Below are positions 10,381 to 62,426 of a DNA stretch of 64,000 bases, piece after piece. The stretch's first letter is position 1; the number at the start of each line of letters is the position of its first letter. Both the position numbers and the translations under genes were made by a program. The notes beneath the pieces were generated by a model. That model was not told where the DNA came from, did no database searches, and saw only the letters and a program-made list of their open reading frames with translations. The DNA is from Patescibacteria group bacterium (GTDB lineage Bacteria > Patescibacteriota > WWE3 > UBA101185 > UBA10185), in assembly GCA_042571445.1 (NCBI GenBank), contig JBHPFT010000001.1, forward strand, positions 29,232-93,231, read 5' to 3'.

Positions 10381-11196
10381 ATGAGCCTACTTCAAGCTTT
10401 AATATTAGGAATAATACAGGGAATTACAGAGTTTTTCCCCATTTCCTCATCAGGACATCTTGCAGTTATTCCAAGTTTTCTAGACTGGCCCCAACAACCA
10501 CTAGTTTTTGATACTTCAGTCCATCTAGGAACAGCTCTTGCTTTATTAGTAGTATTTAGAAAAGAAATTGGAAACATAATCTCTTCATTAGTTAAAGACC
10601 TTTCCTCAAAAGGATTAACATTTAAGGAATATTCAGAAGATTCGATCTTTGGCTATAAACTATTAATTGGATCTATCCCAGCAGGATTGATAGGGTACTT
10701 TTTAAGAGATTTCTTTGAGAATGATGTTCGAGGGGTGCTAATTATTGTGATCTCCCTTCTTTTTGGAAGTATACTCATGGCTTTGGCAGAAAAAGTTCAG
10801 AAGAAGAGGTTACTATCAAAAGATGAACTAGATATAAAACAGGTTTTTGGGGTAGGGATATTTCAAGCCCTTGCTCTTTTCCCAGGAGTGTCTAGATCAG
10901 GAAGTACTATATCAGGAGGAATGTTTCTCGGATTAAACAGAGAGCACGCCACAAAGTTTTCATTTTTGCTTTCAATCCCTATTGTTATTGCAGCAGGTCT
11001 ATTTGAGATAGGAAGTTCATTTTCTAATCTTTCTTCCCTTAATTACCAACCACTGGTAGTTGGGTTCTTAGCTAGTTATGGAACAGCAATATTTGCGATC
11101 AGATTTCTACTTAACTTTGTTAAGAGTAAAAGTCTGCATCCCTTTGTGTTATACAGAGTAGTCCTTGCATTAATTCTTTTGACAGCACTCTTTTAA
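10381..11196 (+). CDS. uppP: undecaprenyl-diphosphatase
   Basis: GITEFFPISSSGHL N-terminal signature and the PG(V/I)SRSG(S/A)TI motif (PGVSRSGSTISGG). Polytopic membrane protein. Confidence 0.9.
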   Translation: MSLLQALILGIIQGITEFFPISSSGHLAVIPSFLDWPQQPLVFDTSVHLGTALALLVVFRKEIGNIISSLVKDLSSKGLTFKEYSEDSIFGYKLLIGSIPAGLIGYFLRDFFENDVRGVLIIVISLLFGSILMALAEKVQKKRLLSKDELDIKQVFGVGIFQALALFPGVSRSGSTISGGMFLGLNREHATKFSFLLSIPIVIAAGLFEIGSSFSNLSSLNYQPLVVGFLASYGTAIFAIRFLLNFVKSKSLHPFVLYRVVLALILLTALF

Positions 11197-45944: not shown

Positions 45945-47137
45945 AAATATTAAGAATAATTTATGATTGGCCACCACCGTGGCAGGGGCTAGGACCACAT
46001 CCATATGAGCTTACTAAAGCACAGCTACAGCTTGGCCATGAAATTGATATATTATGTGGTAGATGGCCAAAAGCAGGACCAGTAGAAAAGCCCGCAGGAG
46101 TCAAAATGCACCCAATACTAAGAGAACCTTTTAATGGAGCAATCTTTTTTACTAGTTCAGTAATCCTTTTTTTCAAATACTTGTCTTTTAGAAGAAAGAA
46201 TAAGGTAGATATTATCCACTCTCACGGGCATTTTGCTATTTGGATATATCTTTATAGATTTCTTCTTCAAAGATTCTTTCCTTGGTCTAAGGAGCTAAAA
46301 ACTCCATTTGTTGTTCATTTCCACAATATTGCAAAGGATAGATGGGAGAAGATGGAGAAACAAGGAAAGGAGATAAAAAGTATGTCTAAAAAATTTAGTT
46401 GGCCTATGTCTGTTTTCTCGGATAGAAAATCTGTAGAAACCGCTTCTGCCTGTATTTTTGTTAGTGACGAGAATAAAGCCAAGGCTATTGAGCTTTATGG
46501 AGCAGATAAAAGAAGATGTTTTGTTGTTGAGTCGGGAGTAAACTCAACACTTTTTAAAAGGGTTTCTGATATTGAAAGAGAAAAATCGAGAAAGGATCTT
46601 GGATTAGATAGATACGACAAGGTTATATTAAATCATGGTGCTATGGTTGAAAGAAAGAATATTCATCTTTTGGTAGAATCTTTGGAGTTTTTACCTGATG
46701 ATTATAGACTTCTTCTTGTGGGATCTGGTGATAGTGATTATGTATTAAAGCTTAATGAAATAATAAAAGACAAGAAACTTATGAGCAGAGTAATTCAGGT
46801 TGGATACACACCATATCCCCAGACCCCAATTTCATACCAGGTTTCAGATATTTTTGTTTTGCCCTCTTCATGGGAAGGGTTGCCAAAGGTTGTTATGCAA
46901 GGACTTAGTTGTGGGGTACCTTGTTTAGTTTCAGGTTTTAAGCTTTCTGAGGATATAGATGGTCTTTTCTATCTAAAAGATAAAAAACCACAAAGTATCG
47001 CTCAAGAAATTCGAAGAATTCTTAATAGTAATCCCCGCGTTGATATAGATAAAGTTACAATAAATTACTCCTGGCTAAAGCGTGCTGAAGGAGTAGAGAA
47101 AGTTTATGATTTTGCCATTAAAAATTACTTGGTCTAA
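45941..47137 (+). CDS. GT4-like glycosyltransferase
   Basis: GT-B-like. VVMQGLSCGVPCLVS resembles the GT4 nucleotide-sugar-binding region. More divergent than the other two. Confidence 0.65.
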   Translation: MKILRIIYDWPPPWQGLGPHPYELTKAQLQLGHEIDILCGRWPKAGPVEKPAGVKMHPILREPFNGAIFFTSSVILFFKYLSFRRKNKVDIIHSHGHFAIWIYLYRFLLQRFFPWSKELKTPFVVHFHNIAKDRWEKMEKQGKEIKSMSKKFSWPMSVFSDRKSVETASACIFVSDENKAKAIELYGADKRRCFVVESGVNSTLFKRVSDIEREKSRKDLGLDRYDKVILNHGAMVERKNIHLLVESLEFLPDDYRLLLVGSGDSDYVLKLNEIIKDKKLMSRVIQVGYTPYPQTPISYQVSDIFVLPSSWEGLPKVVMQGLSCGVPCLVSGFKLSEDIDGLFYLKDKKPQSIAQEIRRILNSNPRVDIDKVTINYSWLKRAEGVEKVYDFAIKNYLV

Positions 47138-48686
47138 AAAAATATACATATATCTCTTATTTATAATTCTTCATTTTTTCTTAATGAATGTGAATACTGC
47201 AGAGTGGGGTGATACCTACAGGATTTTAAGGGGGTCGGAGTTTATTAGAGATAGTTTTTCTTACCCAATAGATGAGAAAAGACCTCCATTATTTTCTCTT
47301 ATTTTGGCAATCAGACCATCGTGTGTTGATCAGGTAGTTTGGGGTAGGGGAGTGATGCTTATTATCAGTCTAGGAGTATTTTATGTTTTTGATAAATTTA
47401 CTGATTTAATTTTTAAAAAAGAAAAAATTAAAAACATTTGTCTATTATTATTTGTTCTAAACCCCGTACTTTTATATTGGTCGTTAAGAGTATACGCAGA
47501 CACTCTTTTTGCCCTTTTGGTTCTGACTTCTTTTTTCTTAATCAAAAAGTGGGAAAAGAAGTTAGACACACGAAAAGTAGTAGTTTTAGGTCTTTTGTCA
47601 GGCCTTTCCATACTCACTAGATATGAAGGATACATTTTGTTTACCTCTATATTCGTTGGAGTCACGTTTTTAGGTGCAGAGGTAGATTTTAAGCTCAAAA
47701 AGGTTTTGAAACTGCTTAGATCTAGGTCTAAAAATCTTATTATTCTAGGTTTAACGACGTTCTTATCAGTACTTCCATATCTTGCGTTTCGTAATCCCCT
47801 AACCTCTCAATATTTCTCTGAACCACAAAGAAGAGTCTACGATACTAAAATGATTTGGGTCTATTTTGTTTCTTTAATATATATATTTGGATTCGTTTAT
47901 GGATTTTTCTTCTTGTTTAAAAAATCTAATGTGGTCATAGATTTTCTTAAAAAGAATGTGGGAATCCTAACATTTCTTGTTATTGAGAGTGTTTTAATTC
48001 TTTTGTGGCCAGCAGCCATTCCCAGACTTTTCGTCCCAATAATACCTTTCTTAGTAGTACTTTTTATGCTTTCCTTTGAAAAGCTTACAAGTTCAGCAAA
48101 GGTGCTTAGTTTTAAAGACTACACACTCCTAGGTTTTCTATTAGGTTTTTATGTTAGTAGTCAGTACTTTCTAAGACTTCAGTTTATGATTCTTAACACA
48201 AAAGTATTTGCTTTTCTTGTTGTTCTACAGCTCGTGATGGTGTTTTTTATGTATAAAAGAAAGTATTTTGTTTTTATCTATCTATCTCTAATCTCATGTA
48301 CTGTATGGTCTCTTGCCACAATCTATTTACATAAGGATATTTACACTGCTGTTAAAGCAGCTTCCATTTATGCAAGAAGAAACATTAAGGGAAATATTGG
48401 ATTTAATGATGTGACGAGTATTTCTGATTGGTATATTAATAACGCCAGTCCATCTTCTGATATTTCTGGATTTTTCTACTCTTTGCACTCTGATGAATCA
48501 GTAGGATATGGAAAACTTACAGATCATAAGATAACTCACCTACTTGTTACAAATGAAGACAGTGTTTCTGTGAACCCAGAGATTGAAAGAAAAAGTTACC
48601 TAAAGTTAGTTAAAGATTTTAGGTATAATATCGGGAGTAGGCATTTTTATGCCAGAGTTTATGAATTTAGAGGAGGTTTTAGATGA
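47106..48686 (+). CDS. GT-C fold membrane glycosyltransferase (ArnT/PMT, GT39/83-like)
   Basis: At least 11 TM helices. An acidic motif in the first extracytoplasmic loop (PIDEKRPP) and GLSILTRYEGY resemble the ArnT/PMT family. Confidence 0.65.
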   Translation: MILPLKITWSKKIYIYLLFIILHFFLMNVNTAEWGDTYRILRGSEFIRDSFSYPIDEKRPPLFSLILAIRPSCVDQVVWGRGVMLIISLGVFYVFDKFTDLIFKKEKIKNICLLLFVLNPVLLYWSLRVYADTLFALLVLTSFFLIKKWEKKLDTRKVVVLGLLSGLSILTRYEGYILFTSIFVGVTFLGAEVDFKLKKVLKLLRSRSKNLIILGLTTFLSVLPYLAFRNPLTSQYFSEPQRRVYDTKMIWVYFVSLIYIFGFVYGFFFLFKKSNVVIDFLKKNVGILTFLVIESVLILLWPAAIPRLFVPIIPFLVVLFMLSFEKLTSSAKVLSFKDYTLLGFLLGFYVSSQYFLRLQFMILNTKVFAFLVVLQLVMVFFMYKRKYFVFIYLSLISCTVWSLATIYLHKDIYTAVKAASIYARRNIKGNIGFNDVTSISDWYINNASPSSDISGFFYSLHSDESVGYGKLTDHKITHLLVTNEDSVSVNPEIERKSYLKLVKDFRYNIGSRHFYARVYEFRGGFR

Positions 48687-49372
48687 AGTTATCGATAGTT
48701 ATACCTGTTTATAATGAGAAGGATACACTTGAGCAGATTGTTGATTTGGTCAGGGGCGTTGAGGGTATTAATAAGGAAATAGTAATGGTAGATGACGGGT
48801 CTACAGACGGCTCTGTTGAAATCTTAAAGAACTTAAAAGAAAAGTATTTTGATATAAAAGTTATTTATAAAGATAAAAATGCTGGAAAAGGAGATAGTCT
48901 TAGAATGGGATTTGAGCACACTACTGGTGATTACGTAATTATTCAAGATGCAGATTTGGAATACGACCCTCAGGATTACAAGAAATTATTAAAAGTATTA
49001 GAAGAAAAAAACGTAGATGTAGTTTATGGATCTAGATTCAAAGGTAAGTCTGAAGATATGTCTGGACTTCATTACTTCGGTAATAAATTATTAACTTTAA
49101 TAGCAAATTTTTTGTTTGGAGTAGCGCTTACTGACATGGAAACTTGTTATAAACTTATGCCTGGAGACTTCATAAGAAATGTGAAGATAGAAGCCAAAAG
49201 GTTTGACTTTGAACCAGAAATTACAGCGAAAATACTAAAGGCAGGACTTAAGATAAGAGAGGTACCTATTTCATATAAAGGTAGAGGTTTTGATGAAGGC
49301 AAAAAAATTACCTGGAGAGATGGTTTTTCAGCTTTGTATACTTTAATCAAGTACAGATTCTTTAAGAAGTAA
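48683..49372 (+). CDS. GT2 polyprenyl-phosphate glycosyltransferase (ArnC/Dpm1-like, soluble/peripheral)
   Basis: IVIPVYNEKDTL ... VDDGSTDGS ... QDADLEYDP. Confidence 0.8.
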   Translation: MKLSIVIPVYNEKDTLEQIVDLVRGVEGINKEIVMVDDGSTDGSVEILKNLKEKYFDIKVIYKDKNAGKGDSLRMGFEHTTGDYVIIQDADLEYDPQDYKKLLKVLEEKNVDVVYGSRFKGKSEDMSGLHYFGNKLLTLIANFLFGVALTDMETCYKLMPGDFIRNVKIEAKRFDFEPEITAKILKAGLKIREVPISYKGRGFDEGKKITWRDGFSALYTLIKYRFFKK

Positions 49373-49375
49373 CTT

Positions 49376-51433
49376 ATGAAAATAGTAAAGTTTGTTAAGC
49401 AAAACATCTTTTTAATTATTCTTTTTGGTGTCATTTTTATTAATCTTGCTGTTGGTCTTAGAATAAACGTATTTAGATATAATAATTTTGATTTTGGAAA
49501 GTTTGACCTTGGAAATATGACTCAGATGGTTTGGAACACCCTTCATGGAAGACTACTCTATCTCACTGACTACTTTGGAGCAAATCTACCGCGTTGGGCG
49601 ATGAGTCATGTTGATCCAATATTGCTTTTGTTTGTGCCAGTATTCGCAGTTTTCCAACACCCTTTAACTTTGGTCTTTTCTCAGATGGTATTAATAGTTT
49701 TTTCTTCTCTTATTGTTTATAAGGTAGCTTTACTTGAGCTAGAATCTAGGTTTGCAGCAGGTATCCTTGGCATCGCTTTTCTTTTCTACCCAGCTATTGG
49801 GTATATCAATTCTCAAACGGGTTTTCATGGAGTATCCGTTGTAATTCCCTTTTTTCTAGGAGCATTTTACATTTTTGAATTAATGCACAAGACTCAAAAC
49901 TTCTCAAAAAAGAATCTTACTATCTTTTGGATACTCCTTGTTTTGACAATGTCGGGAAAAGAGCAAATTCCTCTATATATTTTTATGCACGGTTTATTTA
50001 TTTTTCTTTGTAGGAAGGGTGAAAAAGCTAAAAAGATAAGTATTCAGATGATGGGTGTGAGTTTAATTTGGTTTGTTGTGGCTTTTTTTGTAATTATTCC
50101 AAGATTTGCACATCACAGAGTTGCAGGATACGAGAAATTTTCTAAGTCTATAGGTGTGGAAGTAGATCCAAATAGAGATGTAGCTTTGCCAAACTATTTT
50201 TTGAGTAGATATGACGCGTTTGGAGACTCATACTCTGATGTTGTTGTAAATGTGTTGTTAGACCATAGAAAGGCAATAAAAGTCATTTTTGGAGGAGAAA
50301 GGCCAGAAAATCTTCAAAGAACCTTCACTCCTGTACTTTTTTTACCTCTTCTTCACCCAGGAACCTTTATGATGGCTGTTCCTGATATGGCAATAAACTA
50401 TTTAACTTCAGCAGGGGGAATTGGTACAGCTGAGATAGAAAACCATAGAATATCAATGATTATTCCAGTTTTGTTTATTTCCACTATTTTTACGATCTCC
50501 TTTTTCAGTAAAAATCTTAATAAGATAAGTAAATGGATTAAGATAGTCTTACCCACAGCGGTGCTAGTATCCTGCGTTATTACGGCCTTTAAGTACAATA
50601 GCCCTATTTACCTATGGTTAGAACAGGCTATTAGAAAAAGAGTACTTGCAGATTATGAGAAAGACCCACTTAAGGAGGATTTAAAGATTGGTGGAGTTGT
50701 TAAGATCTCTGACTTAGAAAATAAAGATATTTTGTGTGCACAAGCTATGGTAAATACGATTCCAGACGGTGCTTCGGTTTCTGGCCCAGACTTTTTAGGA
50801 GCACACTTGAGTATGAGAGAAACTTACGCTATCTTTCCTGCTTTGTGGAATAGTGCAGATTACGTAATCGTTGACGTCTTTTCTAGAAAGATTCTTACTA
50901 TCCTAGACTTAGATACAAACATTGTAAGAGATGTTGTTGGGGATTTAATAAAAAGTGAGAATTATAAGTTGATGACAGGGTGTGGGAACCTTTTCCTGTT
51001 TGAAAGAGTAGGCTCATATGAAAAAGAAGAGATTTTACCACTTCAAGAGAGATACCTTTATCCTGAGAAGTATGATTATGAAATTTACTCAAACCTAAAT
51101 GTTGTTGATTTTAATATTCCAAGAGAGATCTCAAGGGGAACTCTCTCACGAGCTAGGATAGTTTATGGAAAAAGAACAAATGAGTCGCTTGATGGATATG
51201 TTTTGTATATGACATATGTAAATTCTGAAACTGGAGAGGTGTATCAGGCTGCAAATCTACCCTCTTTTGCCATAACCAGACCAGAGTCTTGGACCAAAAG
51301 CCGTTACTATATTGAAGACATTGATATTGCGTTTCCAAAGTATTTAAAACCTGGAACATACAGAGCATTTATTAGTATGAGTAATAAAGTAAAGATCAGA
51401 AGCGTGTACCTTTCTGATATTGAGGTAAATTAG
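49376..51433 (+). CDS. DUF2079-like polytopic membrane protein with about 260-aa C-terminal extracytoplasmic domain (putative GT-C)
   Basis: The N-terminal roughly 420 aa have about 11 TM helices, including NFDFGKFDLGNMTQMVWNTLHG. A hydrophilic C-terminal domain follows. Confidence 0.5.
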   Translation: MKIVKFVKQNIFLIILFGVIFINLAVGLRINVFRYNNFDFGKFDLGNMTQMVWNTLHGRLLYLTDYFGANLPRWAMSHVDPILLLFVPVFAVFQHPLTLVFSQMVLIVFSSLIVYKVALLELESRFAAGILGIAFLFYPAIGYINSQTGFHGVSVVIPFFLGAFYIFELMHKTQNFSKKNLTIFWILLVLTMSGKEQIPLYIFMHGLFIFLCRKGEKAKKISIQMMGVSLIWFVVAFFVIIPRFAHHRVAGYEKFSKSIGVEVDPNRDVALPNYFLSRYDAFGDSYSDVVVNVLLDHRKAIKVIFGGERPENLQRTFTPVLFLPLLHPGTFMMAVPDMAINYLTSAGGIGTAEIENHRISMIIPVLFISTIFTISFFSKNLNKISKWIKIVLPTAVLVSCVITAFKYNSPIYLWLEQAIRKRVLADYEKDPLKEDLKIGGVVKISDLENKDILCAQAMVNTIPDGASVSGPDFLGAHLSMRETYAIFPALWNSADYVIVDVFSRKILTILDLDTNIVRDVVGDLIKSENYKLMTGCGNLFLFERVGSYEKEEILPLQERYLYPEKYDYEIYSNLNVVDFNIPREISRGTLSRARIVYGKRTNESLDGYVLYMTYVNSETGEVYQAANLPSFAITRPESWTKSRYYIEDIDIAFPKYLKPGTYRAFISMSNKVKIRSVYLSDIEVN

Positions 51434-51447
51434 GGTAACATTTAAGT

Positions 51448-52911
51448 ATGAGAGACTTAGTTAAATGGCAAGTAGTGAGTTTCACTTCAAGAATGTTGGC
51501 AATGGCTCTTGGCTTGGTCCAGACCTTTGTTATCATTCGAATTTTAAGCGTAGGTGAATGGGGGCTTGTTCAGCTTGCAGTGTCTATTGGAGGAGCACTT
51601 GGTATTTATCAACACCTAGGACTTGCATCAGCTAGTACAAGGGAAATCTCTTCAGCAAAGGATAAAAAGCAGATCACTAAGATATTTGTAACCTCTGCTT
51701 TTGTTAGATATTGTGTAACCCTACCATTAGCGGTAGGTCTTTTCTTTCTTTCTAAACACATTGCACTTAATCTATATAAGAATTCTGATCTAATATTTCC
51801 ACTCAGGGTTTATGCAGTTTCTCTTATATTTCAAGGTATCCAAAGTATTCTTAACTCCGTAATTTCAGGAACAAAGAGATTCAAAGAGTTATTTATTTAT
51901 CAAGTAGCTATAGCGGGTGTAAGTGTTGGTTTATATATTCCTCTTGTGTATTTCTTTAAAGTTAGTGGATTTTTCTATGCATTTTTAGCCTTTAATATTA
52001 TTTCTTCTATAGCTTTATCTGTTGTTGCTTTTAGACCATTTAAAGGTAAGTTTGTGTTCCCTAATAGGAAAGAGTTTATAGTACTTCTCAAGGAGATATT
52101 TTCCATCAGTATCGCTATATATGTAGTAAAAATCATTTATACTAACTGGGAAAAGCTCGGAAGTAATTTCTTAGGTCTTTCTAATTCACCAGAAGTTGTA
52201 GCTATATATGCTTTTGCACTCTTGTATGCTAAAAAACTCATGAATATATCAGATTCTGTAACAGCAGTTAACCTGCCTGTTTTATCTGAGAAGTACTCGA
52301 AAGATATAAAGGAGTTTAGGATGACTTTTTCAGAAAACTTTAACAAGGTATTCTCCCTTATTGTATTCATTGGTGCTTTTGCCTCATATTTTGCACCTAT
52401 TGCAATAAGAGTTTTAGTGGGAAGTGATAAGTACGATGCGTCCTTGCCTTTAATTGCTCCTATGGTGTTAGCTTTTATGATGTACTCATTTATAAACATC
52501 TTTAATTCTTCTGTGATGATTCCTGCAAAACTTTCTAAATCTATGGTTCTTAGTTATGGCCTTTTAATTATTGGATCAGGGGCATTTTTTGGAGTAACTT
52601 TTAAATTTATGGAGTTACTCCCTGCTGTAGCTTGGGGAATGGCTTTTGGTGGTATTGTTTCATTTTTTGCCATGAATATGATTATAAAAAAGAAACTTAT
52701 GTCTGTGTTTTTCCATACTGATCACACTATGGTTTTGATCCAGGCATTTAGTATTGCTTGGTTATGTGTAGTCGAAAACGTTGTTGTTAAAGGATTTGCA
52801 TTTGTTCCTTTCGCATTTTTATTAGGCTGGTCCTTTTTTATCTCAGGATTTATTAAGAAAAGTGATGTTTTGTACATTAGATCTAAAATAAAGTTATCCA
52901 GGAAGAAATGA
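51448..52911 (+). CDS. Wzx-like oligosaccharide flippase (MOP superfamily polysaccharide biosynthesis protein)
   Basis: 487 aa with about 14 TM helices and short loops, typical of the PST family. Confidence 0.7.
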   Translation: MRDLVKWQVVSFTSRMLAMALGLVQTFVIIRILSVGEWGLVQLAVSIGGALGIYQHLGLASASTREISSAKDKKQITKIFVTSAFVRYCVTLPLAVGLFFLSKHIALNLYKNSDLIFPLRVYAVSLIFQGIQSILNSVISGTKRFKELFIYQVAIAGVSVGLYIPLVYFFKVSGFFYAFLAFNIISSIALSVVAFRPFKGKFVFPNRKEFIVLLKEIFSISIAIYVVKIIYTNWEKLGSNFLGLSNSPEVVAIYAFALLYAKKLMNISDSVTAVNLPVLSEKYSKDIKEFRMTFSENFNKVFSLIVFIGAFASYFAPIAIRVLVGSDKYDASLPLIAPMVLAFMMYSFINIFNSSVMIPAKLSKSMVLSYGLLIIGSGAFFGVTFKFMELLPAVAWGMAFGGIVSFFAMNMIIKKKLMSVFFHTDHTMVLIQAFSIAWLCVVENVVVKGFAFVPFAFLLGWSFFISGFIKKSDVLYIRSKIKLSRKK

Positions 52912-54428
52912 AAAAAAGAACAAAAACCCTTTTGATAGGTCTTTTTATCCTGGCCTTTCTTGGGACTCGTATTCCAAGGCTTGCAAAAGATGTAATAAAT
53001 CCAGATGGAGTTAATTGGCATTACAGATCTCAACAGTTTGTAGTAGGTTTAAAGACATTTGATTTTAAAAAAACATATCAACACTATCATCCCGGAGTTA
53101 CTCTAATGTGGATTAGTGGAATACCTATTGAAATATATAAGCAAGTTACTAATACACCGCACTACGATGTTAGAAATTTTCAAGTATTTGATACTGTGGC
53201 CAAAATATCTGTTGTAGTTTCCCAGCTTATTCTTTCGTTTATTGTTTTATGTCTTTTAGATAAGATTATTGGGTTTGAAAGAGCCTTTTTAACGCTAAGT
53301 TTATTCACTTTTGAACCATTCGTTGTGGGAAACTCACGACTTTACCACATGGATATACTAGTAACCCTAATATTGTTTATTGGACTTCTCTATTCATTCA
53401 TTAATTTAAGGGAATCTAGTATAAAAGTGAGTGTTCTATCTGGATTATTTCTGGCTTTAGCATTTTTAACTAAAAGCATTGCTATTGGTGGAGTAGTTTA
53501 CGTTCTAATTTATATGTTAGTTACAAAAATGGAAAAGAAATATCTTGGAGTTGTTTTACTAGCTTTTTTTGTTTTTACCTTTTTTTTGTTCCCAGCACTT
53601 TGGAAAGATCCAATCTACTTTTTAGGAGAAATATTTAGAGAAGGAGAAAGAGTAGGTATAAGAAAAGGTCACGGACAGATTCTTTTTGGAGAATACACAA
53701 GAAACGCTGGAGTGTTTTTTTATCCCCTGGTTTTACTCATGAAGGTTTCCCCCCTTGTGTTAATTGGAGTAATTCTGTTTAAGGTAGTATCTTTAGATAG
53801 TTTCAAGAAGTTATTTAGGAGCACAAAAGAGAAGTTACACAACTTAACTGTATTTCTAGGTATTTTTTATCTTGGGTACATCGGTGTAATGACACTTCCC
53901 TCTAAAAAGATAGATAGATATATGTTAGTTGTTTATCCATTTCTAGCATATGTTGCAGCAATAGGGTTTAGTAAGGTTTTTAATAGGCTTAAAAATAAGA
54001 CTATTTTCTTAGTATTGTCAGGAGTTTCAGTAGCTATTTTTTGGATTTTTCCTTTAATAAAACTCTTTCCATACTACTTTACATATACAAGTCCAGTATT
54101 TGGAAGTGCGGAACGTGCAAATAGCGTTATTGCTCAAAAACCTTTTGGAGTTGGAACTTATGATTTGAAGTATCATATTATTGAAAAGTATGGAGAAGAG
54201 ATAAAACTTGGGTTTATAGATACTAAACCTATGAAGTCTACCTACTCTAACTCAAAAGTATTTGATGTTAGAGTATCTGGTACCAGTGATTATGATCTAT
54301 TAGTATTAGGAGTTAACGAGGAAATTCCTGAGAAGGTACTTCAAAGTGATAACACCTTTGAGAAAGATTCATCTTTATGGATTAATGGACTTGAGTATTG
54401 GAGGATCTATGTCAAAAAAGAAAATTAA
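52908..54428 (+). CDS. GT-C fold membrane glycosyltransferase, paralogue A
   Basis: Multi-TM. Shares KTYQ.YHPGVTLMW and the following loop with the gene at 55874. GLFLALAFLTKSIAIGG resembles the ArnT/PMT motif. Confidence 0.65.
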   Translation: MKKRTKTLLIGLFILAFLGTRIPRLAKDVINPDGVNWHYRSQQFVVGLKTFDFKKTYQHYHPGVTLMWISGIPIEIYKQVTNTPHYDVRNFQVFDTVAKISVVVSQLILSFIVLCLLDKIIGFERAFLTLSLFTFEPFVVGNSRLYHMDILVTLILFIGLLYSFINLRESSIKVSVLSGLFLALAFLTKSIAIGGVVYVLIYMLVTKMEKKYLGVVLLAFFVFTFFLFPALWKDPIYFLGEIFREGERVGIRKGHGQILFGEYTRNAGVFFYPLVLLMKVSPLVLIGVILFKVVSLDSFKKLFRSTKEKLHNLTVFLGIFYLGYIGVMTLPSKKIDRYMLVVYPFLAYVAAIGFSKVFNRLKNKTIFLVLSGVSVAIFWIFPLIKLFPYYFTYTSPVFGSAERANSVIAQKPFGVGTYDLKYHIIEKYGEEIKLGFIDTKPMKSTYSNSKVFDVRVSGTSDYDLLVLGVNEEIPEKVLQSDNTFEKDSSLWINGLEYWRIYVKKEN

Positions 54429-55887
54429 TATACTAGCTCTAATAGTTTTTATAGCACTTCTTTTTCGTTTGATGGGTATAAAGCATGGATTTCCCTTCAT
54501 TTTTCATCCAGATGAGCCAACTATTGTTAGGTCAGCTCTTGGAGTGAGATTTTATCCTAATCCAGGGCACTTCGACTGGCCACATCTATACATTTACCTT
54601 AACTACTTCTTATATATGATCTTTGCTAGGGTAAGAAATATTGCAGGAAGCTTAGGTTTAAGAGAAATAATTCCAATTTTGTGGGATGAGTCGGTAATTT
54701 TTTATCTTCTAACTAGGTGTTTTACTGCAATTTTAGGAGCTCTCACAACTATTCCAGTATATTTATCAGCAAAGAAGTTATTTAGTAAGAAGGTGGCTAT
54801 TGTTTCTGCTTTAGGGTTTGCATGTTTACCTTTTCATATTTGGCATTCACACTATTCTTTGTCTGATGCCCCTATGGTATTTATGCTTTCGTGGGCAATG
54901 TACTTTGGAGTAAAAATATACAAAGAAGGAAAATTAATTGATTATATTTTAGCGGGTCTTTTTGTAGGATTATCTGCATCCACAAAATATAATGGAGGAC
55001 TCTCTGCCTTAGTAATACCCCTTGCTTACATTCTAAGAAAAATACAAAATAAAAAGCCCATAATTGAGTGGAGGGAGATACAACGAATTGTAATTTCTGG
55101 GATAGTTTCCATCGCTGGATTTATTTTAGGTACGCCGTATTCTGTATTGGACTTTGCTACATTTACTCGAACAGATGGGCCAAAAGGAGCTTTGTGGCAG
55201 TTTAAAAATGTTGGATCAGTTAGTTTTCCAGAACATATAATTAAATTCTTTTCGGATTTGGAAACAAAACTTCCAGATGATCTAGGTTACACAGTGTTGG
55301 CTTTGTTTGTTGCTTGTTGGATAGTTGTTGTTTTAAAGATTATTAAAAAGAAGGTGACTGAGGAGTATTTTTCTCTCTTACTCTTTCTAATTCCTCCACT
55401 TTTATATATTTGGTATATCTCGGGCTTTGAAAAGAGTAGATCTCACTACTATATGATTTCTTACCCATTCATAGCAGTGGTGTTTGGTCACTTTGTTTTG
55501 TCTCTTTCAAACTTTTTTAAGAACAAAAAACTGGGGTTGTATCTTTCAGTGTTGATGGTGGTTGCTCCAATGATCTTTTCTATCAAAAATACCTATACAT
55601 TTATTAGAGGAGACACAAGAAACGATCTAAAAGAGTGGTTAGTATCTAGTTTAGAGCCCGGTGAGCCAATAATATATAACGACAGGAAGGCAGAGGATGT
55701 AATTAATCATCTTGGAGCACCGAAATACAAGGGTCTTTCGTACATGGGAGAGTTGGAAAGGGCAATGGTGATAATAATTAACCCAAACGAGATAAGTGTT
55801 CCAGAGAATTTAAGTGAGGAACATTATATTGGAAACAAACTTAGGCTGGGTCCTGAGATAAAGGTGTATAGATATGAAACTAATTAA
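54409..55887 (+). CDS. GT-C fold membrane glycosyltransferase (ArnT/PMT-like)
   Basis: FHPDEPT, then LSASTKYNGGL (ArnT/PMT-type motif), in a multi-TM protein. The start is chosen at MSKKKINIL. The ORF-track start at 54346 overlaps the upstream gene by 83 nt. Confidence 0.65.
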   Translation: MSKKKINILALIVFIALLFRLMGIKHGFPFIFHPDEPTIVRSALGVRFYPNPGHFDWPHLYIYLNYFLYMIFARVRNIAGSLGLREIIPILWDESVIFYLLTRCFTAILGALTTIPVYLSAKKLFSKKVAIVSALGFACLPFHIWHSHYSLSDAPMVFMLSWAMYFGVKIYKEGKLIDYILAGLFVGLSASTKYNGGLSALVIPLAYILRKIQNKKPIIEWREIQRIVISGIVSIAGFILGTPYSVLDFATFTRTDGPKGALWQFKNVGSVSFPEHIIKFFSDLETKLPDDLGYTVLALFVACWIVVVLKIIKKKVTEEYFSLLLFLIPPLLYIWYISGFEKSRSHYYMISYPFIAVVFGHFVLSLSNFFKNKKLGLYLSVLMVVAPMIFSIKNTYTFIRGDTRNDLKEWLVSSLEPGEPIIYNDRKAEDVINHLGAPKYKGLSYMGELERAMVIIINPNEISVPENLSEEHYIGNKLRLGPEIKVYRYETN

Positions 55888-57484
55888 GAGATTTAAATAT
55901 GAAATATTAGCTGTATTCTTTTTTGTTTTGATTAGAGTTCCTAATCTGGGAAGAGACATTTTCAACACAGATGCTTGGAAGTGGAAGACTAGAACTTACG
56001 ATTTTAATACAGGGGTCTTTACTCTGGATTTTGAGAAAACATATCAAAAGTATCATCCTGGTGTAACTTTAATGTGGGTAGGGTCAGCTGGAGTTAAGAT
56101 TCAAAATTTCTATCATAAAGTTATTCTTAATGACCCAGGTGAAGAACTACTAAATATATTTGAACTTCACTTCATCCAAAAATTGCTAGTAGTCACAGTT
56201 ATTGGGACCTCACTGGCTTTTTGTTTCTATGTTCTGCGAAGTTTGTTTGGTTTACAATTTGCTACTCTATCTACTTTTCTACTTTCGTTTGAACCCTTTT
56301 ATTTAGCTTTAACACGGGTTTTTCACTTGGAGGGGCTAGTTTCTACATTTATGTTAGCAAGTGTCTTATGGCTTTTTTACTATCTTTTTGATACCACTTT
56401 TAGAAAAAGGTTAGTAGTGTCTGCAATTTTTGCAGGTTTTTCATTTCTAACCAAAACTTCTTCTATTTACCTTTTACCTTTCACTCTTCTTGTAGTATTT
56501 TTAAATACTTATAGTAAAGATGATGTGTGGAATAGTTTTAAATCTACAATTTTAATTGTTTTAAAATGGTTTGGAATTTCTCTTTTAATCTTTGTAGCTT
56601 TATGGCCGGCACTTTGGGTTACACCTCTTGATGTAATTTTAGAACTTTATAGAGGTATTGCAGTGATAGGCGTAGAAAGAGAACACATTCAAGTTTATTT
56701 TAGCAAACTGGTTAAGAATCCAGGCCCAACTTTTTATCCGGTGGTTTTGGCTCTAAAATCTTTTGTGTTTTTACTTCCAGGTCTTTTAGGAACACTTGCT
56801 TTTTTAAAGGGCTTTGATGAAAAAAAGAAAAGATTTGTGAAGTTTTTACTAATATATTCATTTTTCTATTTCCTACAACTTACAATCCCATCAAAAAAAC
56901 TAGATAGATATATTCTCCCAGCTTTAATGTCTTTTTCACTTGTTTCTACTATGTTTTACTATTGGGTTTTAGGGAGACTGAAGAAGGGTAGGAAGTTTTT
57001 ACTTGTATTTATAATAGTTACTCCTATTCTCACTGCTATTAGTATCCATCCAGATTATCTTTCGTATCACAATCCACTTTTTGGAGGACTAGAGACTGGG
57101 ATAAAAGTCTTAGAACCAAAATGGATGATTGGTACTTCTGAGATCGTTTCCTACTTTGAAGAGATACGTGAAGATGAAAACTGGGAGAAACCTTCTTCTG
57201 ACACTTCTCTCGAAGCTCTGATTGGTTCAGAAAGAGTTGAGAGGGTTTTAGTGGTAGGGTTACCAGAAAAGTATTATACTCAAATTTGGCCCTTTCTTAG
57301 AGAGAAAAATATTTGGCCAGCCATTAAAGATTTAACAGCTTTTGCTAAACATGCAAAGTATTTTATTTACCCTGTTTGGCAAGATAGTAGTAGCTTTGAG
57401 GATAGATTTGAGATAGAGTATCTCGGCTCTATTAAAAAGGACGGAGTAGACTTGTACAACGTTTATAAAAGGATTTATCGGTGA
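55874..57484 (+). CDS. GT-C fold membrane glycosyltransferase, paralogue B
   Basis: EKTYQKYHPGVTLMWVG... closely parallels 52908..54428. GFSFLTKTSSIYL motif. At least 11 TM helices. Confidence 0.65.
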   Translation: MKLIKRFKYEILAVFFFVLIRVPNLGRDIFNTDAWKWKTRTYDFNTGVFTLDFEKTYQKYHPGVTLMWVGSAGVKIQNFYHKVILNDPGEELLNIFELHFIQKLLVVTVIGTSLAFCFYVLRSLFGLQFATLSTFLLSFEPFYLALTRVFHLEGLVSTFMLASVLWLFYYLFDTTFRKRLVVSAIFAGFSFLTKTSSIYLLPFTLLVVFLNTYSKDDVWNSFKSTILIVLKWFGISLLIFVALWPALWVTPLDVILELYRGIAVIGVEREHIQVYFSKLVKNPGPTFYPVVLALKSFVFLLPGLLGTLAFLKGFDEKKKRFVKFLLIYSFFYFLQLTIPSKKLDRYILPALMSFSLVSTMFYYWVLGRLKKGRKFLLVFIIVTPILTAISIHPDYLSYHNPLFGGLETGIKVLEPKWMIGTSEIVSYFEEIREDENWEKPSSDTSLEALIGSERVERVLVVGLPEKYYTQIWPFLREKNIWPAIKDLTAFAKHAKYFIYPVWQDSSSFEDRFEIEYLGSIKKDGVDLYNVYKRIYR

Positions 57485-58755
57485 GAACTTTACTAACAAA
57501 GTTAAAACAAAATACAGATCTATATAACACTGTAGTTGTAGGGGTGGGGAGTATTATAGCTTCAATCTTTAGCTATTTTTTACAACTATACCTTGGTAGA
57601 AATCTCACAGTTTCTGATTTTGGAGCTTTTAGTGCCCTTTTATCTTTGTATTACTTAATAAATGTTCCAGCGACAGTGTTTAGTACGTCTTTGGTAAAAA
57701 CAGTTTCTGAGATGGATCCCCAAAAAGACAAAGATAGAATCACCTACCTTTTTTCTAGACTGGGACAACTTGCTATTTTAGTTGGGTTTTCCATTTTCTT
57801 AGGAGTTTTTGCATTTAGGTTTGTTATCTCAGATCAACTTCAGATATCAAATACTGGAGCAATATCAGTTTATGGGATATTAATGGGACTTGGATTTGTG
57901 GGACTTTTGCCCCACTCATATCTTCAAGGTCTTCAGAAGTTTACCATGTTTGCAATTTACTTGATTGTTATCAATATAAATAGATTTATTATTCCAGCTA
58001 TTTTAGTGGCTTTAAGTTTTGGTTTGACTGGGGTTTTTAGTGGTATGTCTATAGCTATACTTTTGTCGTTTTTGATAGGTTTTCTATTCTTAAAAAGTAA
58101 TTTTAGTAAAGTAGACAAAAGTATTTCTCTTTCGGGTGAGTTCAAAAAGCTCTTGTCATTAAGTCTACCTGTTCTTTTAATACACTTTTGTATGATGGCC
58201 ATGAATAACGTAGATGTGATATTAATAAAAAAGTATTTTGATGAGATTACAGCTGGATATTATGCAGGAACAGTTACTCTTGGAAAGATAATATTATTTG
58301 GAGCAGGGGCAGTTACCATAGTTATGTATCCAAGAATTTCAGCGCTACACTCAAAAGGTCAGGAATATAGAAAGATCTTTAGAAATCTGTTTACTCTTCA
58401 GATCATAATAGTACTATCTGCCGTGACCGTCTTTGCACTACTTCCTGGTTTCATTACTAACCTCTTTTTTGGAGAAAGATTCTTGGATTCTATTTCTTAC
58501 CTTCCTTTCTTCTCAATATTTATTGGACTTTATGTTTTTGTTTATTTTCTAACCATGTTTAGTTTAGCTATAGATAAAAGGAAAGTTTATATGATTCTCA
58601 TTCCCCTTGTACTTACACAGTTTTTATTAATTACATTCTTTCACTCAACAATATTTCAAGTTATTAAAATCAATATTTTTGTATGTATAATAGCCCTAAT
58701 CGCCCTTTTAGCGTTTACACTGCCCAAAATATTAGTTGATGCCAAGGAAAAATAA
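57481..58755 (+). CDS. Wzx-like flippase / polysaccharide biosynthesis membrane protein (second copy)
   Basis: 424 aa with about 12-14 TM helices. GTG start. Confidence 0.65.
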   Translation: MRTLLTKLKQNTDLYNTVVVGVGSIIASIFSYFLQLYLGRNLTVSDFGAFSALLSLYYLINVPATVFSTSLVKTVSEMDPQKDKDRITYLFSRLGQLAILVGFSIFLGVFAFRFVISDQLQISNTGAISVYGILMGLGFVGLLPHSYLQGLQKFTMFAIYLIVININRFIIPAILVALSFGLTGVFSGMSIAILLSFLIGFLFLKSNFSKVDKSISLSGEFKKLLSLSLPVLLIHFCMMAMNNVDVILIKKYFDEITAGYYAGTVTLGKIILFGAGAVTIVMYPRISALHSKGQEYRKIFRNLFTLQIIIVLSAVTVFALLPGFITNLFFGERFLDSISYLPFFSIFIGLYVFVYFLTMFSLAIDKRKVYMILIPLVLTQFLLITFFHSTIFQVIKINIFVCIIALIALLAFTLPKILVDAKEK

Positions 58756-60577: not shown

Positions 60578-60829
60578 ATGTCTGAAGTAATATATAAAAA
60601 TAAGGACTCTGAGGTAATAATTAAAATATTAACTCACAAATGTATTAGTGCAGCTACATGTATTGTTAGAGCTCCAAACACCTTCGAATTGGACGATGAC
60701 GGAATCGCTTACTGCAAGAAAGGAACATGGGACGAGGCAGAGAAAATAATAGAGGGAGCCAAAACCTGTCCTACAACTGCAATTATTGTTGAGGATTTAG
60801 ATGGAAATCAGCTTTATCCAGATTTGTGA
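60578..60829 (+). CDS. small single-cluster ferredoxin-like protein
   Basis: 83 aa. C-x5-C (CISAATC) ... C ... C-P (KTCPTTAIIVEDLDG) aligns with Pyrococcus-type monocluster ferredoxins (CIGDAIC...CPVSAITIEEA). Confidence 0.6.
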   Translation: MSEVIYKNKDSEVIIKILTHKCISAATCIVRAPNTFELDDDGIAYCKKGTWDEAEKIIEGAKTCPTTAIIVEDLDGNQLYPDL

Positions 60830-60842
60830 TATTCTTTAAATC

Positions 60843-62426
60843 ATGCCTAAAAAGAAAGTTAAAGTAGTAGTTGGATATCCACCTGTTGAGTCTAAAAAAG
60901 GTGTGCCTCTTTTGTCTCAGAATAGGCAGTTTCAATATTTTAATGCTCCAACATTTATTTATCCCATGGTTCCTGCATATGCTGCATCCTTAGCTAAGAA
61001 ACGAGGGTATGATGTTTATTGGATGGACGGTATCGCAGAAGGTAAAAAGTATAACAAGTGGGTGGGGGAACTAGTAACTTTAGAACCAGACTTTATTCTG
61101 ATTGAGGTGAAGGCTCCAATAGTTAAGAAGTTTTGGAAAAAAGTTGATGATATTAAGAAAAGATGCCCGGAGACGATAGTGGTTTTATCTGGTGACCATG
61201 TTACATATGATCCTGTGGAAACACTGGATAACTGCAAAGTAGACTATATTATTACTGGGGGAGACTATGACTTTGTTTTCTCAGATCTACTAGATGCTTT
61301 AACTAAAGGAAATACTTTTCCAGGTGGAGTATGGAGTAGAAAAGAATCTAAGGGATTTGAAAAGAAGGGAAGGTACTGGTGTACGGGGGGAATGGATTTG
61401 CATCATAATCTTGATGATTTACCTTTTGTTGACAGAGATTTAACCAAATGGAAGCTTTATGCGTATGCAAACGGTAATTATAAGTTTAAACCAGCAACAT
61501 ACATGTATTCTGGAAGAGATTGTTGGTGGAATAGATGCACTTTTTGTATTTGGGATCATGTTTTGTATCCCCCAGGAAAATATAGAAGGTTTTCTCCAGA
61601 AAGACTCTTTGCTGAGGTTAAACATGTCGTAGATAACTACGGTGTGAAAGAGATATTTGATGATGCAGGAACCCTATTTGTTGGTCCCCCTCTTAAGAAG
61701 TTTTGTGAGATGTTAATTGATTCTGGTTATAACAAGAAAGTTGTTTACAGCTGCAATATGAGAATAAATGCTTTAACACGTGAGTATTACGATTTAATGG
61801 CAGAAGCTAACTTTAGATTTATTCTTTATGGACTTGAGTCAGGAAACCAAGAAACTCTAGATAAACTAGATAAAGGACTCAGGGTTGAAGAGATTGAGCC
61901 CAATCTTAAAAATGCTAAAGAAGCGGGTCTTGAGCCCCACGTAACTATAATGCTTGGGTATCCTTGGGAAACTGAGGAAATGGCCCAAAATACCATTAAT
62001 GTATCAAAAGAACTATTTAAAAAGGGCTACGTAGATACAATGCAAGCAACTATCGTTATTCCTTATCCAGGTTCCCCATTATACAAACAATGTCAGGAAA
62101 ATGATTGGTTCCAAGTAGATCCAAAAGATTATGAGAAGTTTGATATGAGACATCCTGTTATGAAAGTACCTTTTAGTAATGAGAGGCTTTTAGAACTCAC
62201 ACAGTCTCTTTACTCATCTTTCTTTAGTCCTCAGTATTTGTGGAGAAAAATAAAGGCAATTAGAACAAAAGAAGATATTAGGTGGTTTTTCATGGCAGCT
62301 CGAAGACTTCTTGCCCATCTTTTAGATTTTGATAAAGAGCAAGAGGGAGTTAATTGGTGGCACCCGAAGTTTTGGATAGATGCCGTTAAGAGTATGCTTG
62401 GTCATCTGAAAAAGTCTAATAAATAA
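60843..62426 (+). CDS. B12-binding-domain radical SAM protein
   Basis: The N-terminal domain has the class-B rSAM signature VVVGYPP...P.VPAYAASLAKKRGYDV. A Cys triad GRDCWWNRCTFC (C-x4-C-x2-C, aromatic after the last Cys) starts at about residue 228. A GLESG glycine-rich SAM-binding motif lies downstream. Confidence 0.8.
   Translation: MPKKKVKVVVGYPPVESKKGVPLLSQNRQFQYFNAPTFIYPMVPAYAASLAKKRGYDVYWMDGIAEGKKYNKWVGELVTLEPDFILIEVKAPIVKKFWKKVDDIKKRCPETIVVLSGDHVTYDPVETLDNCKVDYIITGGDYDFVFSDLLDALTKGNTFPGGVWSRKESKGFEKKGRYWCTGGMDLHHNLDDLPFVDRDLTKWKLYAYANGNYKFKPATYMYSGRDCWWNRCTFCIWDHVLYPPGKYRRFSPERLFAEVKHVVDNYGVKEIFDDAGTLFVGPPLKKFCEMLIDSGYNKKVVYSCNMRINALTREYYDLMAEANFRFILYGLESGNQETLDKLDKGLRVEEIEPNLKNAKEAGLEPHVTIMLGYPWETEEMAQNTINVSKELFKKGYVDTMQATIVIPYPGSPLYKQCQENDWFQVDPKDYEKFDMRHPVMKVPFSNERLLELTQSLYSSFFSPQYLWRKIKAIRTKEDIRWFFMAARRLLAHLLDFDKEQEGVNWWHPKFWIDAVKSMLGHLKKSNK

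Follow-up and report, generated by a model that had tools for sequence, protein, structure and literature searches.

A ferredoxin and radical SAM enzyme pair in a conserved glycan-gene cassette of Patescibacteria

In a 64,000-nucleotide stretch of contig JBHPFT010000001.1 from a WWE3 patescibacterium (the window), a small ferredoxin gene is followed by the gene of a 527-residue radical S-adenosylmethionine (SAM) enzyme. A sequence-only reading of this DNA had drawn attention to the pair, and both the open reading frames (ORFs) and the Pfam matches bear it out. The enzyme combines an N-terminal domain of the B12-binding type with a radical SAM core whose cluster is predicted to sit on a CX4CX2C cysteine triad, and in related genomes it recurs in a cassette of glycan genes. 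We tentatively propose that the ferredoxin-reduced enzyme tailors a sugar intermediate of an envelope glycan, most likely not by methylation but by a rearrangement, a dehydration or the contraction of a ring, in the way associated with HpnJ or AprD4.

The cluster triad and the family of the enzyme

The radical SAM core is matched by Pfam PF04055 (Radical_SAM) over residues 225-386, with 73 bits (cut-off 29.5). The B12-binding family (PF02310) covers residues 45-139 with 25.4 bits, slightly under its gathering score of 32.1, a score that relatives of the enzyme exceed (34-40 bits). An AlphaFold2 model computed from an alignment of 61 sequences has a mean predicted local distance difference test (pLDDT) score of 84.5 and a predicted template-modelling (pTM) score of 0.87. 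It superposes over its full length onto structures of B12-domain radical SAM enzymes, AprD4 being the top match, and the N-terminal B12 fold announced by the sequence-only reading appears to be present.

Besides CWWNRCTFC the protein has no match to C-x(2-8)-C-x(2-3)-C, and the pattern CWW[NGA][RK]C[TV]FC occurs in all 120 of the closest database clusters (64-89% identity). In the 61-sequence alignment C227, C232 and C235 are invariant and the residues between them vary. Our reference HpnJ is the annotated copy on a Paraburkholderia graminis plasmid; MAFFT and BLASTP both place the triad on its CRSKCTFC, with a one-residue gap between the first and second cysteines. Because they align with this canonical triad, C227, C232 and C235 are the predicted ligands of the SAM-cleaving [4Fe-4S] cluster; the motif, singled out earlier as the only candidate, thus proves to be a real cluster site. 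The motifs for SAM binding (FDDAGT, ESGN and GYPWET) show little or no variation among the 61 sequences, and by this pattern of conservation the radical SAM core and the triad are under strong purifying selection.

The CX4CX2C spacing is real here, yet it has a precedent in OxsB, a cobalamin-dependent radical SAM enzyme of solved structure that carries the same motif (PMC9204698). Within the clade, moreover, the loop between the first and second cysteines is merely variable in length, with 3 (CPMKCSFC), 4 (CWWGKCTFC), 7 (CWWRKDGGCTFC), 9 or 17-18 residues. What had been described as a non-canonical motif therefore stands as a spacing and falls as a novelty: examples are already known of the architecture, of the motif variant and of radical SAM enzymes that tailor sugars, and the motif is no discovery.

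In several relatives the cluster motif is interrupted by an intein (Intein_splicing with a LAGLIDADG homing endonuclease). That of P0122 (972 residues) sits before the third cysteine, CWWGKCTF/C...VKN/CSW, and that of P0123 (911 residues) before the first, GRD/C...VHN/CWW... (slashes at the intein boundaries), which makes two independent insertion sites inside nine residues. P0124-P0126, P0338 and P0359 also carry inteins at the motif. Insertion exactly at the first and third cysteines fits what would be expected of a catalytic site.

Five near-full-length relatives (P0140, P0142, P0149, P0155 and P0156; 31-37% identity to the window enzyme) have all three cluster cysteines replaced (for example RDSDWGQSSLGS). 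The two that were scanned with Pfam, P0140 and P0142, retain the Radical_SAM match and the B12-binding domain, the latter below cut-off in P0142. These paralogues are probably catalytically dead radical SAM proteins.

We also considered an auxiliary second cluster in the window enzyme, C304 being invariant and C288 and C417 nearly so among the 61 sequences. It is unsupported: C304 aligns with a cysteine of both HpnJ and AprD4, and C288 and C417 have no cysteine counterpart in HpnJ.

Against the curated NCBIfam models the enzyme scores 161 bits for HpnJ (TIGR03471; cut-off 577.6), 96.4 for BchE (TIGR02026; 481.35) and 44.7 for AprD4 (NF033070; 500), and it misses every curated cut-off. Since no model is passed, it lies outside the named families and inside the group of radical SAM enzymes with a B12-binding domain, where it represents an unassigned, so far uncharacterised clade. 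It is nearest to HpnJ by sequence and to AprD4 by structure.

HpnJ, the best-scoring curated family even if far below cut-off, is 28% identical to the window enzyme over 465 aligned positions (BLASTP, E 3e-40), and the homology is collinear over the Rossmann domain, the radical SAM core and the C-terminal cap. At the site of the GEGE of typical class B enzymes both proteins have [DE]-[YF]-D-F, both are encoded beside a family 2 glycosyltransferase (GT2) gene (hpnJ-hpnI), and the presumed substrate of both is glycosylated and lipid-linked. HpnJ itself is hopanoid-associated and is proposed to contract the ring of bacteriohopanetetrol glucosamine to the cyclitol ether. In contrast to the window enzyme, the one HpnJ examined has the CX3CX2C spacing, and whereas the family of the window enzyme often comes with a dedicated ferredoxin, none is present at the one hpnJ locus examined. 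The window proteins that were scanned gave no hopanoid-pathway family match, so that the association with hpnI, shc, hpnH and hpnK is absent. A GT2-plus-radical-SAM module shared with hopanoid clusters was rejected as well, the glycosyltransferase of the window matching HpnI with an E value of 0.71.

BchE, the anaerobic magnesium-protoporphyrin monomethyl ester cyclase, is the second-best curated family, and no photosynthesis genes lie near the window enzyme. In databases P0002, P0006, P0010, P0015 and other homologues are labelled as BchE (anaerobic magnesium-protoporphyrin IX monomethyl ester cyclase) or as 'YgiQ'. The former label is unsupported because the score is 96 bits against a cut-off of 481, and it is almost certainly wrong; the latter is equally unsupported. 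Full-text searches of the available literature library found no paper on this family.

The ferredoxin and the conserved cassette

More than 4,300 clusters (90% identity) match the enzyme at E <=1e-5, with 8,000 candidates scored, and a pattern scan of species-representative genomes gave 480 loci. Eighty of them were retrieved, from WWE3, Roizmanbacteria or Microgenomates or from generically labelled metagenome-assembled genomes (MAGs). ORF clustering revealed a recurring cassette, in the order GT-C (PMT_2) glycosyltransferase, Wzx flippase, GT2, GT2, (ferredoxin), radical SAM enzyme. Counted over the 58 Patescibacteria loci with at least 5 kb of upstream sequence, a homologue of the window's dual GT2 lies upstream of the radical SAM gene on the same strand in every case. 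A Wzx flippase is found within 5 kb upstream in 44, and a GT-C gene commonly precedes it (32/58). The association of the pair with glycosylation genes thus extends to dozens of related genomes, as the sequence-only reading would have it.

A ferredoxin gene lies upstream of the enzyme on the same strand at 43 of these loci, directly adjacent in 31 and at a distance of at least 400 nucleotides in 12. In the window its ATG abuts the TAA stop codon of the GT2 gene, and 13 nucleotides (60830-60842), not the 14 given previously, separate it from the radical SAM gene. The protein scores 37.4 bits for Fer4_13 (cut-off 24.5) and 32.7 bits for Fer4_15 (cut-off 22.4), and its ligand pattern reads C22-x2-A25-x2-C28 ... 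C64-P65. When the window ferredoxin is compared with 43 homologues, conservation reaches >=90% at C22, C28 and C64-P65; C46 is not conserved, and position 25 is alanine in nearly all, with cysteine in two homologues. The pattern C-x2-A-x2-C ... C-P is typical of [3Fe-4S] ferredoxins, those with [4Fe-4S] clusters having cysteine at the alanine site. Ala25 therefore suggests a [3Fe-4S] cluster in the window ferredoxin, which is the probable electron donor to the radical SAM enzyme.

In a WWE3-type subset of loci a protein of about 320 residues is encoded just upstream of the radical SAM gene, mostly directly after the ferredoxin gene (L016:6963-7922 (+), with equivalents in 11 of the 80 loci retrieved). 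This protein, in which CPSHPG and CYCDRC occur, matches no Pfam family and has no counterpart in the window. Loci with such an ORF between ferredoxin and enzyme are comparable in number to the 12 non-adjacent ones. Other recurrent neighbours of the enzyme are a GalE-like epimerase, a DegT aminotransferase, GT4 glycosyltransferases, SAM methyltransferases and a GT-C with TPR repeats.

Glycan loci recur beyond the Patescibacteria. A sister clade with seven residues between the first two cysteines, about 40% identical to the window enzyme, comes from MAGs labelled Omnitrophica, Elusimicrobiota and Deltaproteobacteria, among other sources. The three contigs of it that we examined are all glycan loci, and in two of them the radical SAM gene directly follows a GT2 gene. 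In an Elusimicrobiota relative (L084) a 1103-residue fusion of multiple GT2 domains is encoded directly upstream. Plasmid 1 of Lawsonia intracellularis (L082; NC_008012.1, 27 kb) encodes a relative of 29% identity with the canonical CX3CX2C spacing, in a glycan-type cluster of GT2, GalE, GT2, a SIS-domain protein, two radical SAM genes, of which that of the relative is one, and five class I methyltransferases.

Adjacency to glycan genes could in principle be incidental, the enzyme serving an unrelated pathway such as the modification of a peptide or RNA. ApyD (79.6 bits) and rSAM_ocin_1 (63.8 bits), both of which mature peptides that are made by the ribosome and modified after translation (RiPPs), and MiaB/RimO are among its weak NCBIfam matches, and MiaB and RimO are also among the structural ones. 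The RiPP and MiaB matches are nevertheless generic to the fold and far below cut-offs. No conserved ORF for a small precursor peptide was noticed among the neighbour gene clusters, and the GT2 adjacency spans all 58 genomes from WWE3 to Roizmanbacteria and is echoed by the glycan loci of other phyla. Altogether, a role outside glycan synthesis appears very improbable.

Table 1. Features of the window around the ferredoxin and radical SAM genes.
Feature	Position	Strand	Basis or remark
Radical SAM enzyme, 527 residues: N-terminal B12-binding-type Rossmann domain, radical SAM partial TIM (triosephosphate isomerase) barrel, C-terminal helical cap	60843..62426	+	ORF
N-terminal Rossmann (cobalamin-binding-like) domain of the enzyme, residues ~1-160	60843..61322	+	
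Cluster-binding motif CWWNRCTFC, C227/C232/C235, CX4CX2C	61521..61547	+	translation, homologue alignments
Single-cluster ferredoxin, 83 residues	60578..60829	+	ORF, Pfam Fer4_13 and Fer4_15
Fused dual GT2 glycosyltransferase, 613 residues	58736..60577	+	Pfam Glycos_transf_2 twice
Wzx-type (Polysacc_synt) flippase, in the conserved cassette	57481..58755	+	Pfam
GT-C (PMT_2-like) membrane glycosyltransferase, last of four paralogues	55874..57484	+	PMT_2 24.8 bits, cut-off 26.1
Convergent multi-pass membrane protein, 520 residues	62416..63978	-	ORF; overlaps 3' end of the radical SAM gene by 11 nucleotides

In the window the dual GT2 gene has a TTG start and overlaps the Wzx gene by 20 nucleotides; in most related genomes its two domains are separate, adjacent genes. 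The first domain has sub-threshold NCBIfam matches to PpgS, ArnC and AglJ, which are polyprenyl-phosphate-sugar synthases, and the second to MftF, EpsD and AglG, which extend lipid-linked sugars. The second domain ends in hydrophobic segments that look membrane-spanning.

The wider surroundings agree with the claim that the pair is embedded in a glycan locus. Between 40248 and 60577 lie a GT2-GtrA fusion, more GT2 genes, a UDP-glucose dehydrogenase, three GT4 genes and the fused dual GT2, together with four PMT_2-like GT-C genes, one DUF2079 protein and two Wzx-type flippases. Four PMT_2-like GT-C, DUF2079 and two Wzx within 47106-57484 (+) amount to a large outlay on extracytoplasmic glycosylation for a small genome. 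A gene for an undecaprenyl-diphosphatase (UppP/BacA) is found at 10381-11196. With the 520-residue membrane protein the plus-strand operon reaches its downstream limit. This protein matches no Pfam family, its NCBIfam matches, to Leptospira GT-C-like families, are faint, and it is not a conserved neighbour, since the genes downstream vary among related loci.

Of the three things that the sequence-only reading had named as fatal to itself (cluster ligands elsewhere, an absent B12 fold, absent synteny with glycosylation genes), none was found.

Cobalamin, substrate and the proposed reaction

In the proposed pathway, the dual GT2 would build a polyprenyl-phosphate-linked mono- or disaccharide, or possibly a nucleotide-linked sugar, at the cytoplasmic face of the membrane. 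The ferredoxin, presumably co-transcribed and of the [3Fe-4S] type, would reduce the [4Fe-4S] cluster on the CX4CX2C triad, where the extra residue of the motif would merely lengthen the loop between the first two cysteines. Cleavage of SAM would then give a 5'-deoxyadenosyl radical, and this would take a hydrogen atom off a sugar carbon. Wzx would flip the modified intermediate across the membrane, and its transfer outside the cell would fall to the GT-C enzymes.

The chemistry has several precedents. AprD4 (PDB 6fd2) is a 1,2-diol dehydratase that acts on a sugar, the aminoglycoside paromamine, and shares with the window enzyme the two-domain layout with a B12-like Rossmann domain. Its sequence match is significant over the radical SAM core, at only about 15% identity. 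AprD4 takes part in antibiotic biosynthesis, paired with the reductase AprD3, and does not belong to an envelope glycan locus. OxsB (PDB 5ul2-5ul4), which is cobalamin-dependent, contracts the ring of a deoxyadenosine phosphate and so offers an example of non-methylating sugar-ring chemistry. It has about 730 residues against 527, the surplus including an extra N-terminal domain, and partners OxsA in a nucleoside antibiotic pathway. No sequence match to the window enzyme is found at E <0.01, and in structure AprD4, MgmA and TsrM all match better than OxsB does. The calditol synthase Cds of Sulfolobus (Saci_1489) is a radical SAM enzyme proposed to make a five-membered carbocycle from the hexose head group of a lipid (PMC13459092). 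Functionally it sets a precedent for the tailoring of a lipid-linked sugar, and it is likened to the window enzyme by description only; unlike the latter, it is archaeal and tied to tetraether lipids.

These precedents differ in their need for cobalamin. AprD4 and ArsL belong to the same similarity network and are reported not to bind it (PMC12931638). In OxsB, TsrM and TokK the cobalamin tail is contacted by G-x-S/T-x-X after β3, by a Gly-Gly at β4 and by a Gly-Glu at the start of α5 (PMC9204698). A profile search of the PDB aligned the N-terminal domain of the window enzyme with TokK and MgmA without statistical significance, and these weak alignments set I-E88-(T/V)-K90-A-P92, G117-D118 and G139-G140-D141-Y142 at the tail sites. 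Taken with the same caution, they show one glycine kept and the serine that contacts the dimethylbenzimidazole (DMB) replaced by an invariant glutamate. Likewise, Gly-Gly is changed to an invariant G-D, and GEGE to an equally invariant G-G-D-Y in which the GE is not kept. The window enzyme may thus work without cobalamin. Its earlier designation as class B fits the B12-type domain, while the cobalamin use that the label implies was overstated. To our knowledge Patescibacteria are not expected to synthesise the cofactor, and no cobalamin uptake genes were found among the window proteins scanned. Given the cobalamin-free AprD4 as best structural match and the diverged tail motifs, the puzzle of cofactor supply may not exist.

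Several observations weigh against the proposed non-methylating, possibly cobalamin-free reaction. The N-terminal domain is extremely conserved in the 61-sequence alignment, where its long β1-α1 loop, LSQNRQFQYFN, is almost invariant. In TsrM and TokK, according to the weak alignments, the counterpart of the invariant K90 sits under the cobalt. With such a conserved domain and this lysine, the enzyme may bind cobalamin after all. The cluster loop is a low-confidence part of the AlphaFold2 model (pLDDT 57-66). A [3Fe-4S] cluster may reduce the radical SAM cluster poorly, and the ferredoxin, absent from about a quarter of the loci, is therefore not obligatory. One relative (L083) has nucleotide-sugar enzymes as its neighbours; the sugar acted on could therefore be nucleotide-linked instead of lipid-linked. 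Finally, most characterised radical SAM enzymes with a B12 domain are methylases.

Part of this evidence would equally suit a cobalamin-dependent class B C-methyltransferase that methylates an unactivated sugar carbon of the glycan intermediate, in the manner of GenK or MoeK5, with cobalamin taken up from the environment or from a host. Besides the prevalence of methylases and the position of K90, the conserved B12-binding-type domain, for which relatives pass the PF02310 cut-off, speaks for it, and sequence similarity networks group HpnJ with Fom3 and MoeK5 (PMC9204698). However, the nearest named families, HpnJ and BchE, are non-methylases, the structurally closest AprD4 is cobalamin-free and, in the weak alignments, the tail motifs have diverged as described; the expected lack of cobalamin synthesis in Patescibacteria points the same way. 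We regard the methyltransferase as possible, though rather doubtful.

The comparison with HpnJ also raises the question of whether the substrate is a lipid, such as a membrane lipid or the polyprenyl carrier, instead of a sugar. The HpnJ/BchE/ladderane group includes several relatives that act in lipid pathways, the NCBIfam matches include hopanoid HpnJ and a ladderane lipid-biosynthesis B12/radical SAM family (53.9 bits), and the C-terminal helices of the window enzyme, rich in Trp, Phe and Lys, could attach to a membrane. All of these matches are nonetheless far below their cut-offs, and HpnJ is proposed to act on a sugar head group, not on the hydrocarbon. Lipid-synthesis genes are missing among the conserved neighbours, every one of which is glycan-related, both in Patescibacteria and in other phyla. 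A lipid substrate is distinctly unlikely.

The tailoring of a sugar by non-methylating chemistry, which we tentatively favour, can be stated more sharply for the whole clade, widespread across WWE3 and Microgenomates-type Patescibacteria. Its members would be cobalamin-independent, ferredoxin-driven radical SAM enzymes acting on the polyprenyl-phosphate-linked sugar made by the GT2 pair. They would rearrange the skeleton of the sugar, for example by contracting its ring to give a carbocyclic cyclitol, in the manner proposed for HpnJ and Cds, or by dehydrating it as AprD4 does. In this full form the claim is unlikely; if true, an unusual sugar would mark the cell envelope of a large group of ultra-small bacteria.

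The clade offers a natural series of loops between the first and second cysteines, from 3 to 18 residues, with which the tolerance of the cluster site could be probed. Showing whether it needs cobalamin would help to gauge how far 'B12-binding radical SAM' labels can be trusted where cobalamin synthesis is absent. The cassette itself is a compact set of genes suited to heterologous reconstitution. Little has been described of the surface glycans of Patescibacteria, ultra-small bacteria that are believed to spend their lives attached to hosts. With about 480 loci, the cassette is widespread, and it would therefore place a tailoring step by radical chemistry in a widespread envelope glycan of these bacteria.

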